Part shown: piece by piece, positions 119-8,897 of the stretch
How the letters are laid out: every line of letters begins with the position of its first letter
Position numbering within the stretch: the stretch's first letter is position 1
Program-made: the position numbers and the translations under genes
Virus genome (UHGV): UHGV-1809260
Reading direction: 5' to 3' (one strand)
DNA length: 16,081 nucleotides
From: a virus
The notes under the pieces: generated by a model
The model's database searches: none
The model's input: the letters and a program-made list of their open reading frames with translations, nothing else
What the model was told of the DNA's origin: nothing

Positions 119-144
119 GAAAAAGGCCGCGCAGTTGCGCAGCC
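119..144 (-). terminator. Intrinsic terminator-like hairpin (minus strand)
   Basis: Plus-strand ggccgcgcagttgcgcagcc (125-144) forms an 8-bp stem with one G-U pair when read on the minus strand; followed on the minus strand by a run of six U (plus-strand A-run 119-124). Confidence 0.5.
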
Positions 145-199
145 TTATGAATTCTGGTTAAAATCCATTCGATTATAAAAATGTATATCTCATGCTGTT

Positions 200-225
200 G
201 CCCGAACCCACTCGGGCTTTTTTTT
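200..225 (+). terminator. Rho-independent terminator (plus strand)
   Basis: Perfect hairpin gcccga-acccac-tcgggc (200-217) immediately followed by eight T (218-225). Confidence 0.6.
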
Positions 226-233
226 GCCCACAA

Positions 234-485
234 GAAAGCCCCTCCGGAGAGGGGCTAAAGCCGCGTATCTGTATCATCATGCACATGGTGCCGGGTGCCT
301 CCCGGTGAGTTCAGCCCGGTGCCACTAAACCCGCGTCATTCTCGTTTTGATAATCAGAGATTATACCGTCACCAGTCGCCCCTCCGCTCAGGGGGATTCA
401 CCATGCGAAATTTTTTTAACAAATGCCCAGTCTGACAGGCAACTGTCAACTTACTGAATTGTGAGCAACATAGCATTTAACGGGG
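234..485. repeat. Paralogous structured unit A (~250 bp), copy 1 of 2
   Basis: Shares conserved blocks with 721-969: gaaagcccctccggagaggggct; catggtgccgggtgcctcccggtgagttcag; gcccctccgc-cagggggattcaccatgc; ttttaacaaa; ctgaattgtgag; aacggg. The blocks are separated by divergent spacers. Contains perfect hairpins gcccctc-cgga-gaggggc and ccggg-tgcct-cccgg. Confidence 0.6.
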
Positions 486-502
486 AACCTGTTTTCTGCA
501 GT

Positions 503-529
503 AAAAAGGCCCACCGGAGCGGATGGGCC
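503..529 (-). terminator. Intrinsic terminator-like hairpin (minus strand) between the two repeat units
   Basis: ggccca-(10 nt loop)-tgggcc at 508-529; on the minus strand it is followed by five U (plus-strand A-run 503-507). Confidence 0.5.
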
Positions 530-720
530 TGGAAGGATAGCGGTCATGTGATGCCGGTTTCCCGGTAACTCAGCACCGGTATCTGAGTCAACGTTTTCTC
601 TACTGGGTCATTTCCGATACGCCCTGCCTGCTGACAGGCTTTCATCACATCTGAAAATATAGCACCCTGACTGATACTGTAGTACCCAAGGTTCCAGAAA
701 CTGTGATGTATCCGGCACAG

Positions 721-969
721 AAAAGCCCCTCCGGAGAGGGGCTGGAGAGTGGCGCTATGTGCCATTGCATGGTGCCGGGTGCCTCCCGGTGAGTTCAGTA
801 TCAGCACCTGAACCCGCACAGAAAGGATAAGGGTCGGTGACAAAACACCAGTTGCTGATTGCCCCTCCGCACAGGGGGATTCACCATGCCAGTTTCTTTT
901 AACAAACTCCCCGCAAACCAGACAACAGTCAACCGCCTGAATTGTGAGGTATTTAAAAATTTCAACGGG
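721..969. repeat. Paralogous structured unit B (~250 bp), copy 2 of 2
   Basis: Same conserved blocks and the same two hairpins as unit A, in the same order and orientation; on the minus strand the gcccctc-cgga-gaggggc hairpin is followed by uuuucugug. Confidence 0.6.
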
Positions 970-7749: not shown

Positions 7750-8897
7750 TTGCGCCCCCTTGCCTCTGAAGGGTTCAGCGACAAATTTATGAGGCAGGCC
7801 AGCGCCGAAGCATCATTAATATAGTCATATAAGCTAACAGCCAGCGGAGATTCGGCTTTTGCCAACATAGGATAAAGCTGCTGCAGCCAGACCTGATGAA
7901 TTGATGAAATGTAGGAACAGAGAACGCTGGCGTTATGTGCAACGTCGCTCGGTACAGCAGGCTTTGAAAGCTGTTTCTCCATCTGGTTAAAGGCATTGAT
8001 GTATGCCTCTTTGAACTTGGCAGCACGTTTACCCGTGAAACCCATAGCAAGAAACGCAAAACCGTCGCGGGTGATTTGGTAACAAGGGAGTTTGCGGCCT
8101 GATGCGTCGGTGTATTCACTTAACACAAAAATGTGTTCAGTAAATTCAGCGGAACATTCGAGGTTTCTAATTCTATCTAAAACCCGCTCATGCCGTTTAG
8201 TAAAGTAATTAGCTACTGCAAGAGATGTGGTGACAACGCGACCATTGATAATCGTGATTTCAGGGTGAGATTGGGTTGGGAGAGTAGTCATGGTGACAGC
8301 CCCTATGTTGAATTCAATGAACTCACCACCAAGGCTTTCCACGACCATATAGGTGGTGAGACGTACAGGGGTGGAAATACCGGTCAACATAGAACCCGGC
8401 CCAACCGAAGTTGGCCCTGCACGCCCCACCATAATTTGGGCGTAACGATGCTCATGACACGAAAAAACCGCATGAGCGCGGTTGTGCTCTATATTGAATT
8501 TCGGGTTTCCACGCCCGGCACCCGCTTTATAAGGTGCCGGAACAGTGTAACGTCCCGGAATTGCAGAATCAATATGCTGGTGTTCCTTCACACTCAACAA
8601 AATCACGCCTGAATTTCCACAAAGGACTAAAGCACTCATGCGGGTAGTCTTTGCGAAGATAGATAACGCGCTGTGTTTCTGGCTCCCAACGAATAACATG
8701 GACATAAAGCCCTCTTCCGTCACGAAACCAGCGGTTAAGTTCCTGCACAACTCGCCCCCCACAGTCAGGTAAAGTTCTCTGTGGTTACTTACAGCCAGGT
8801 GATTTGGTAATCTGCATTCATGCCGTAACAACAGGTGTTCAGCGACGCTGACCACCAGCTGTTGCGACAAACGGTTATTTGCCGTTAAACTGTTCAT
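7746..8897 (-). CDS. Rha-family phage regulatory protein with an unusual ~200-aa N-terminal extension
   Basis: Residues ~203-305 (MTTLPTQSHPEITIINGRVVTTSLAVANYFTKRHERVLDRIRNLECSAEF...) match the Phage_pRha pattern. The frame stays open upstream to the ATG at 8897, which overlaps the upstream stop (ATGA) and has a GGAGA site. An internal ATG at 8291 also has an AGGGG site. Confidence 0.65.
   Translation of the reverse strand: MNSLTANNRLSQQLVVSVAEHLLLRHECRLPNHLAVSNHRELYLTVGGELCRNLTAGFVTEEGFMSMLFVGSQKHSALSIFAKTTRMSALVLCGNSGVILLSVKEHQHIDSAIPGRYTVPAPYKAGAGRGNPKFNIEHNRAHAVFSCHEHRYAQIMVGRAGPTSVGPGSMLTGISTPVRLTTYMVVESLGGEFIEFNIGAVTMTTLPTQSHPEITIINGRVVTTSLAVANYFTKRHERVLDRIRNLECSAEFTEHIFVLSEYTDASGRKLPCYQITRDGFAFLAMGFTGKRAAKFKEAYINAFNQMEKQLSKPAVPSDVAHNASVLCSYISSIHQVWLQQLYPMLAKAESPLAVSLYDYINDASALACLINLSLNPSEARGRK

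Follow-up and report, generated by a model that had tools for sequence, protein, structure and literature searches.

What is encoded by the repeated, seemingly non-coding DNA downstream of the antiterminator gene Q in the virus genome UHGV-1809260, and why would a phage keep it there? By "the window" we mean the whole stretch of DNA analysed (16,081 nucleotides, nt). A first-pass annotation, made from its letters alone, had singled out two paralogous units of about 250 base pairs (bp), at positions 234-485 and 721-969, which share an ordered series of conserved blocks and two hairpins; it took them for structured RNAs and not for decaying coding sequence, and could match them to no known RNA. 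Here, we find that both units belong to a known RNA family and add to that annotation the strand of the RNA, which is the minus strand, and a third copy, diverged in sequence, that lies between these units. Positions 226-969 very probably comprise three tandem, independently terminated minus-strand genes for small RNAs (sRNAs) of the STnc100 family, situated in the moron slot of a lambdoid late operon and acting through Hfq.

Both units were placed in the STnc100 family (RF02076) by a cmscan search of the window against Rfam, copy 1 at 435-226 (-) with 165.5 bits (E = 6e-38) and copy 3 at 918-713 (-) with 141.4 bits (E = 9e-32), each a full-length match at 3-3.5 times the family's gathering score of 47 bits. 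Copies 1 and 3, whose genes we delimit as 226-485 and 713-969, are members of a family already known and not a new RNA, and the novelty implied by the first-pass annotation is lost: its units are equivalent to EcOnc27/sRNA103 and related to PasD. Over the units, other Rfam families gave only weak chance matches at E <= 1 (Ysr49 and ncS025); toxin-antitoxin RNA families were not matched at E <= 1 in positions 1-1500, and ARAGORN detected no tRNA or tmRNA gene in the window. The coordinates, ordered blocks and hairpins given earlier agree with the sequence and with a repeat search, which aligned 378-465 with 861-948 (88 nt, 80% identity), 284-314 with 768-798 (31 nt, 100%) and 229-256 with 716-743 (28 nt, 93%). 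Global identity of units 234-485 and 721-969 is 69% over 261 columns, far above chance (shuffled controls: mean 46.8%, maximum 51.5%). One hairpin changes its meaning: gcccctc-cgga-gaggggc is indeed present on the plus strand at 238-255 and 725-742, but it is a Rho-independent terminator read on the opposite strand, while ccggg-tgcct-cccgg (291-305 and 775-789) is helix P5 of the structure described below.

The middle copy (copy 2, 501-674) is a diverged relative of the same family, and it alone misses the RF02076 threshold, matching at 674-501 (-) with 30.1 bits (E = 2.6e-4). It was recovered at 650-543 (-) with 29.4 bits (E = 7.7e-6) by a core-only covariance model, R1, which was built from 46 diverse homologues (<80% core identity) with the middle copy and PasD left out; the same model gave 93.0 bits to copy 1 (406-280), 95.2 bits to copy 3 and 31.5 bits to the cores of PasD, and it found no further core anywhere in the 16 kb beyond the three copies. 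Sequence identity of the middle copy to the other two is only 51-52%, and its minimum-free-energy fold has the same architecture as theirs. We considered that it might be a decaying pseudogene and rejected this, as the same type is kept at >=90% identity in 673 of 5426 complete Escherichia coli genomes, where it is unannotated.

All three copies follow one plan in their minimum-free-energy folds (z-scores -2.0, -2.7 and -2.7). An 8-bp helix P1 closes a junction with, in order, P2, a variable P3, P4 (7-9 bp) and P5; P2 pairs CCCCCU with AGGGG around a 6-nt loop containing GCGG, and P5 (CCGGG-AGGCA-CCCGG) abuts the 3' strand of P1. Downstream of this core lie a linker of 20-35 nt, mostly unpaired, and the terminator; the linkers of copies 1, 2 and 3 occupy about 283-257, 545-531 and 766-744. 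In copy 1 the core spans 283-406, with P1 formed by 406-399 and 290-283, the P2 hairpin at 394-378, P4 at 330-309 and P5 at 305-291, and the Rho-independent terminator (231-256) consists of the hairpin 256-237 followed by UUUCUU. Copy 3 has its core at 889-767, P5 at 789-775 and a terminator hairpin at 743-724 followed by UUUUCU; in copy 2 the core lies at 650-546 and the terminator hairpin at 530-507.

Homologues were collected with exact-pattern scans, which found at least 120 genome loci and at least 120 viral contigs, and with nhmmer, from which 285 units (234 unique) were extracted; 150 of these were aligned after thinning to <90% identity, save for the three window copies. In this alignment P1 is paired in 91% of the cells and seven of its eight pairs are changed on both sides (e.g., GC in 89 and AU in 46 sequences, or UA in 55 and CG in 40), and P4 is paired in 87% with all seven pairs changed on both sides, while P2 (90% paired) and P5 (99% paired) are mostly invariant in sequence. 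The observed covariation score of 0.222 was reached by none of 500 shuffles (0.116 +/- 0.003), and slid controls gave 0.05-0.08. The outer and auxiliary helices 1, 4, 5 and 8 of the Rfam consensus are unsupported in the same 150 sequences (32-43% paired). The STnc100 structure is conserved here, and its conservation is backed by compensatory changes. Two of the checks that the first-pass annotation had proposed, a scan with RNA family models and a search for compensatory base changes among homologues, thereby came out in favour of its view that the units are paralogous structured RNAs: the two are full-length members of one family, and their stems P1 and P4 covary.

Conservation of the core is deep. 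Among 46 sequences at <80% core identity, about 30 core positions are invariant and 13 more nearly so, and the 20-mer TCACCGGGAGGCACCCGGCA, which spans P5 and P1, occurs exactly in at least 120 genome loci of genera of the Enterobacteriaceae, Erwiniaceae and Yersiniaceae, including, among the matches listed, Kosakonia, Citrobacter, Enterobacter, Salmonella, Klebsiella, Raoultella, Kluyvera, Pantoea, Erwinia, Rahnella, Serratia and others. The linker, which holds the putative seed, and the terminator vary, and the structured core is what the alignment shows to be conserved. By this comparison, selection falls mainly on the pseudoknotted core and not on the linker or terminator, which is unusual for an Hfq-dependent sRNA.

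The pseudoknot itself is predicted from the 6-8 nt that follow P2 (the joining segment J2/3), which are complementary to the P4 loop, with both segments changing together. In copy 1, CUGGUG (375-370) faces the P4-loop segment CACCGG (321-316), in copy 3 AUCAGCA (859-853) faces UGCUGAU (806-800), and in copy 2 the pair is GUAUCGG/CCGGUGC; homologues offer CCAGUC/GACUGG, UAAUGAC/GUCAUUG, AAGUCACA/UGUGACUU and AUUAACC/GGUUAAU. Altogether, 104 distinct duplexes of at least 5 bp were counted among 148 sequences. The longest complementary run averages 6.59 nt, compared with 5.03 +/- 0.09 nt when the segments of different sequences are cross-paired (maximum 5.27 in 300 trials), and the mean duplex energy is -9.65 kcal/mol compared with -6.02 +/- 0.22 kcal/mol. 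Within-sequence controls gave 4.61 nt for the reversed loop, 4.04 nt for the sequence's own 3' linker and 4.55 nt for the shuffled loop; runs of at least 6 nt occur in 84% of the sequences and in 7-19% of the controls. In a plain MAFFT alignment the signal is split over two registers, as some rows have the loop shifted by a column: register 0 is 52% paired with a score of 0.306, which exceeds all 500 shuffles (0.181 +/- 0.026), and register +1 is 47% paired with a score of 0.216. The case for the pseudoknot therefore rests mainly on the alignment-free tests. The consensus structure line of RF02076 holds only nested pairs, and the preprint that links PasD to STnc100 used RNAalifold (bioRxiv 10.64898/2026.05.13.724894); going by these two sources, the pseudoknot seems not to have been described. 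We consider this covariation-supported, predicted J2/3-P4-loop pairing part of the conserved core.

Where would the RNAs begin and end? A terminator scan lists intrinsic terminators on the minus strand at 256-237, 530-507, 743-724 and 146-123. Over positions 1-1600 it reports ten terminator-like sites, where shuffled sequence gives 1.8 +/- 1.5. Nine of the ten are on the minus strand, and together they collapse to six distinct sites, five on the minus strand, three of which are the units' own. On the 5' side, the alignment consensus across genera has a TTGAC-like hexamer and an A/T-rich -10-like hexamer before P1 at the right spacing. The 5' leader of copy 1 (413-480) contains a putative inner promoter, with TTGCCT (442-437) as -35 and TAAAAA (418-413) as -10, and an upstream -10-like TTAAAT (480-475); directly upstream of P1 in copy 2 stands a putative extended -10-like element, TGCTATATT. 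The estimated 5' end of PasD2 (NC_011601:741157) coincides with the first P1 nucleotide (L002:1658), and a corresponding start at about 406 with an end at about 231 would give an RNA of 176 nt for copy 1 and of about 173 nt for copy 3. The promoter-like elements of the copy 1 leader are conserved in 52 E. coli-type leaders, which also carry a further block, TTTTTAAAT..CTCACAATTCAG..GTTGAC..TTGTCTG..TTTGTTAAAA; best conserved in these leaders is the 12-mer CTCACAATTCAG, found exactly at 465-454 in copy 1 and at 948-937 in copy 3 (minus strand). A start at this upstream block, put forward here as a hypothesis, would give RNAs of about 230-240 nt, fitting the 235/247-nt Northern bands of EcOnc27 (PMC4104026) and the unit length in the first-pass annotation. 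Within the 12-mer lies CUCACAA, which is complementary to the PasD seed UUGUGAG and matches CUCACA, the target motif of PasD; cross-talk between family members through CTCACAATTCAG is a speculative thought.

The genomic context of the array could be read from a 99.9% identical locus in E. coli JNEC-KY203, whose RefSeq annotation was used for gene calls. On the minus strand, Q (1472-1867; PF06530, E = 3.3e-52) is followed by a 198-bp open reading frame (ORF, 1270-1073), the three RNA genes, a SASA/NanS-p-like sialate O-acetylesterase of which the start lies in positions 1-17 (ATG 17-15), DUF1378 and DUF826 proteins, holin and lysozyme. This places the units where the first-pass annotation had put them, downstream of Q in the moron and lysis-cassette zone and on the same strand, and their location is sense within the late operon between Q/PR' and the lysis genes. 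A phage converting to Shiga toxin (Stx) type 2a has the order Q, the same 198-bp ORF, methylase, three tRNAs, stx2A, stx2B, one STnc100 copy (160 bits) and nanS-p (yjhS), with the start of which the esterase start of the window aligns. The counterpart of copy 1 in that phage (L244:4530-4744) lies directly after stx2B, and from copy 1 to the esterase start codon the two are about 86% identical overall and about 90% identical over the RNA; copy 1 is on this basis the orthologue of the EcOnc27/sRNA103 gene 3' of stx2B. The three RNA genes, Q and the esterase are co-oriented in the moron slot of the late operon where Stx phages carry stx2, and the window prophage has RNA genes there without the toxin cassette. 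The same polarity holds more widely: in tblastn searches, Q was upstream and on the same strand in every locus where it was detected, and holin and lysozyme were always downstream on that strand (Q, holin and lysozyme were detected 75, 58 and 46 times in 113 viral contigs and 23, 19 and 20 times in 117 genome loci).

Outside the window, the 1.5-kb region containing the array is matched in part in 3442 of the 5426 complete E. coli genomes (median 2 and up to 19 places per genome), with at least 80% of it covered at one place in 19 genomes, and it matches 366 phage records, mostly Stx-converting phages. An array of canonical, diverged and canonical copies also stands in other lambdoid prophages between tRNA genes and holin, in UTI89 (L245:2839-3433) and at L246:2793-3370; in these two arrays RefSeq annotates no RNA gene, just small pseudogene fragments opposite the flanking canonical core. 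Existing annotation suggested that the middle copy might be a stand-alone gene elsewhere, which we rejected after R1 found it flanked by canonical cores again in both UTI89 and Evo1; the three-gene array thus recurs as a module. The same spacing of canonical cores, roughly 450-500 bp, is seen in about ten viral contigs. The K-12 prophage DLP12 with its IpeX was tried as a homologue and dropped, there being no Rfam or R1 match in DLP12 571500-578500.

Other cores have different surroundings. At 18 genome loci a KdgM-family porin gene lies downstream of a core; one is a complete core with a covarying P4 upstream of chromosomal kdgM in Kosakonia oryzendophytica (L013:812-938), and there are 17 similar genome loci. 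Roughly 60 genome loci were hit by none of the seeds for Q, holin and lysozyme and had no kdgM hit either. In Kosakonia, the porin gene is followed by genes for a periplasmic pectate lyase and a GGDEF/EAL protein, no terminator stands in the roughly 190 nt between the core and the porin start, and there are no phage genes near this kdgM-associated core. In a prophage on a Pantoea megaplasmid, two or three cores spaced about 125-130 nt apart precede a single terminator just after a DUF1133 (Q-like) gene; multi-core arrays of this kind (L040:878-2037 (-) on a plasmid of Pantoea sp. App145, and also L066, L074 and L079) appear to yield multi-core transcripts.

Building on the family membership, strand, architecture, covariation, context and distribution documented above, we propose that the array between Q/PR' and the nanS-p esterase with its lysis cassette consists of three genes, each with a sigma-70-type promoter region, a core of about 110-125 nt, a short variable linker and a Rho-independent terminator. 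In the lysogen, each gene would be separately transcribed and terminated, giving stable RNAs of about 175 nt when started at P1 or about 230-250 nt when started upstream. By homology with EcOnc27 and PasD, these RNAs would bind Hfq via the module of 3' linker and terminator and, through their variable 3' region, base-pair in trans with host and island mRNAs. Upon induction, Q-modified RNA polymerase from PR' would read through all terminators to the esterase and lysis genes. We infer the expression, start sites, Hfq binding, trans base-pairing and Q read-through at the window from homologues or from the sequence.

Several observations weigh against this proposal. Every functional step for the window copies is taken over from homologues, for which reviews in turn give no direct target or phenotype where the canonical STnc100 RNAs are concerned and call the mechanism unclear. 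The inferred promoter hexamers are weak matches, and as a simple sigma-70 consensus scan reported none of them, the sites are treated here as hypothetical. By strict criteria, 121 of 125 cores in viral contigs have a terminator no more than 170 nt from P5, as do only 78 of 152 cores in genome contigs of other genera, and some cores lie outside prophages or stand back to back without terminators. The pattern of conservation also looks reversed relative to a typical seed-driven Hfq sRNA, with a near-invariant 5' core and a varying putative seed and terminator.

A second reading was kept because it is the core rather than the seed that is conserved, and because the core occurs without an sRNA-type tail. 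It makes the conserved pseudoknotted core the functional unit, an autonomous structured RNA domain, either catalytic or with a conserved protein or small molecule as its binding partner, serving as a decoy, sponge or sensor that is steady in lysogens and abundant in the late transcript, with Hfq pairing secondary or lineage-specific. We regard this as a serious possibility without holding it to be the probable one, and it overlaps the sRNA explanation and does not exclude it. It would account for the roughly 30 invariant and 13 nearly invariant positions among 46 diverse sequences, for the exact P5/P1 20-mer in at least 120 loci across genera of three families, for five helices and a covarying pseudoknot next to an unconserved linker and terminator, and for cores without nearby terminators, upstream of a chromosomal kdgM/pectate-lyase locus or two to three back to back in Pantoea. 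It has to contend with the lack of a known partner, ligand or cleavage product and of any consistent metabolic gene class downstream, where holins, a porin, an esterase and Ivy are encoded; moreover, the Northern sizes of EcOnc27 and PasD fit promoter-to-terminator RNAs and not cleaved fragments, and a structured 5' domain could serve merely as a stabiliser against 5'-end-dependent decay. On a stronger claim, which we hold to be rather less likely than not, the core of about 115 nt that the middle-copy type has in common with STnc100 and PasD would be an autonomous class of structured RNA so far undescribed, with a specific partner or a catalytic activity. If true, the Hfq tail would be a lineage-specific add-on to a core that lambdoid phages place, often in multiple copies, in the leader of the late operon, which would explain the dyads and arrays kept between Q and the lysis genes as well as the core near chromosomal kdgM and the multi-core arrays.

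Could the units instead act in cis, as insulators? The terminators would then form a cascade that blocks read-through from PR' or the moron into the lysis genes and that only Q-modified polymerase passes, with the short RNAs as by-products, as was once assumed for the PR'-tR' transcript. The excess of minus-strand terminators in 1-1600 over shuffles, the co-orientation of all units with the late operon, the upstream position of Q wherever it was detected and the precedent of StxS for a terminated late-leader RNA (PMC7547250) agree with this. A hairpin and a U-tract suffice for a terminator, however, and leave unexplained a core of about 115 nt with five helices, covariation and a pseudoknot that is conserved across genera; many cores elsewhere have no terminator, each unit has promoter-like elements of its own, and the homologous RNAs accumulate and bind Hfq. 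We think it unlikely that insulation is what the units are for; a terminator cascade is possible as a side function, leaving the core unaccounted for. Far less credible still is an origin in decayed or small protein-coding sequence or in a repeat at the level of the DNA, for instance a recombination site or miniature mobile element. Short ORFs do overlap the units (295-435 (+) and 801-965 (-)), RefSeq places a plus-strand pseudogene for a "hypothetical protein" at window positions 759-899 and hypothetical proteins over PasD loci, and the sequence is multi-copy, as seen in the counts for E. coli genomes given above. Among the homologues, however, the best reading frame is open in only 46 of 139 sequences (no frame exceeding 33%), core lengths are evenly spread modulo 3 and neither strand has a conserved frame, which bears out the earlier view that this is not decaying coding sequence; for want of a conserved ORF among homologues a small protein or type I toxin gene was likewise rejected. 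The substitutions are compensatory in the helices and the pseudoknot, the element keeps one orientation with respect to Q and the lysis genes, and neither terminal inverted repeats nor target-site duplications turned up around the units in a repeat search.

As an identification, three STnc100-family sRNA genes in this slot are routine: known prophage sRNA genes at a known position. What is added is their strand, the third copy, the exact relation to EcOnc27 and PasD, and the covariation-supported pseudoknotted core, which offers an experimental handle on why lambdoid phages keep RNAs between Q and the lysis genes. The family adjoins stx2 in Shiga-toxin phages, and in a machine-learning study STnc100-family variants ranked with the leading predictors of haemolytic uraemic syndrome (PMC12711010). 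The region merits annotation as three STnc100-family genes and one AsxR-like gene.

The AsxR-like gene is an AsxR/AgvB-type anti-sRNA-like gene at 170-222 (+), convergent with copy 1. Its RF02703 score of 63.0 bits is exactly the AsxR gathering score, and its RF02702 (AgvB) score of 43.4 bits lies below the gathering score of 56 for that family. The 3' terminator part is conserved, and because the 5' variable part is unlike both AsxR and AgvB, the RNA may sponge a different sRNA than they do.

Three further observations concern the surrounding sequence. Between this dyad and the esterase, the additional intrinsic terminator at 146-123 (-), AAGGCUGCGCAACUGCGCGGCCUUUUU, resembles the PasD terminator GGCUGCGCAUUGCGCAGCCUUUUUUUU and lies in a region conserved in the Stx2a phage; it may be what is left of a PasD-type gene whose place the STnc100/AsxR block has taken. 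About 60-80 nt past the Q stop codon, 1413-1389 (-) forms a strong intrinsic terminator (CCCGCC-GCCU-GGCGGG followed by UUUUUU), which is missing from the output of the terminator scan, since part of the U-run was taken as stem; this is a candidate tR' and would yield a short leader RNA from PR', an analogue of StxS. Far from the array, a C4 antisense RNA (8349-8436 (-), 82.4 bits) adjoins an isrK RNA (8461-8537 (-), 61.6 bits), both inside an ORF that RefSeq annotates in the identical locus as a Rha-family regulator; the pair looks like a c4/isrK and antirepressor module of the phage P1 immI or Gifsy-1 kind, and the start of the Rha-family coding sequence may have been annotated too far upstream.

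How do the window genes compare with known systems? In SreA/SreB, EutX/Rli55 and other sRNAs derived from or controlled by riboswitches, which are compared here solely for their possible mode of action, a structured and conserved 5' domain precedes a variable tail with a terminator, and the terminated RNA acts in trans. The window units likewise present an aptamer-like conserved core, but they have neither a conserved expression platform nor a coherent class of downstream genes, which are heterogeneous, and riboswitch membership was rejected. A riboswitch-like antiterminator formed by the 3' strand of P2 with the 5' strand of the terminator had also been considered: the two are complementary in the E. 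coli copies, but this alternative pairing is absent from PasD and from other genera.

A closer relative is PasD1/PasD2 of enteropathogenic E. coli E2348/69 (homologue EcOnc13), abundant, Hfq-dependent and Northern-validated RNAs whose chimeras from ligating and then sequencing interacting RNAs (RIL-seq) map to the 3' ~50 nt with the UUGUGAG seed (PMC8550237); a common origin of PasD and STnc100 has been proposed (bioRxiv 10.64898/2026.05.13.724894). PasD shares with the window genes the core architecture, the site between Q and an esterase or holin and an estimated 5' end at the first P1 nucleotide, and it matches the STnc100 model at 37.7-41.4 bits, below the gathering score, besides its R1 score given above. 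It differs in its 3' seed CCUUGUGAGUUCUGG, which is absent from the three window RNAs, and the common part is the core fold only. A PasD seed CCUUGUGAG together with a PasD-type terminator in one RNA was not found in the window, where the sole near match (143-157 (+), two mismatches) is at chance level, and as the seed is absent no window copy can be called PasD. The middle copy is about as distant from canonical STnc100 as PasD is, yet it is not PasD.

StxS (EcOnc15), the short PR'-tR' transcript of Stx phages, is an Hfq-binding sRNA that the same group of phages makes from the leader of the late operon, by termination that Q overrides (PMC7547250). StxS arises from PR' itself, immediately after Q, whereas the window units lie about 500-1250 nt past the Q stop codon, beyond the terminator 1413-1389 and a small ORF, and have promoter-like elements of their own and a much larger, different structured domain.

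The nearest system is STnc100 itself, known as EcOnc27 in O157 Sakai and sRNA103 in EDL933. EcOnc27 crosslinks to Hfq under UV light, and the 247-nt form of this RNA is less stable when hfq is missing (PMC4104026); a published EcOnc27 Northern probe matches the linker of one aligned family member. In EDL933, eleven STnc100 copies are transcribed, one of them Northern-confirmed (PMC5331693), and overexpression of sRNA103 raises fimZ and espA transcripts by a mechanism described as unclear (PMC7873438, PMC12711010). In prophage Sp5, EcOnc27 and the convergent sRNA EcOnc02, which is AsxR, lie 3' of stx2B, and the same arrangement recurs in seven more Sakai prophages, hence in at least eight (PMC4104026); such dyads are also treated in PMC7873438, and reviews call both their regulatory mechanism and the reason for them unclear. 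The window has the same slot between the PR'-moron site and the nanS-p/lysis genes, the same strand and a convergent, AsxR-like partner, with the copy 1 terminator (256-237 (-)) facing the AsxR-like terminator (200-217 (+)) as in the AsxR/AgvB and STnc100 dyads of Tree et al. (2014). It differs in that its prophage is without the methylase, tRNA and stx cassette, and in that two more STnc100-type genes precede the dyad, making three tandem copies where the Stx phage has one.

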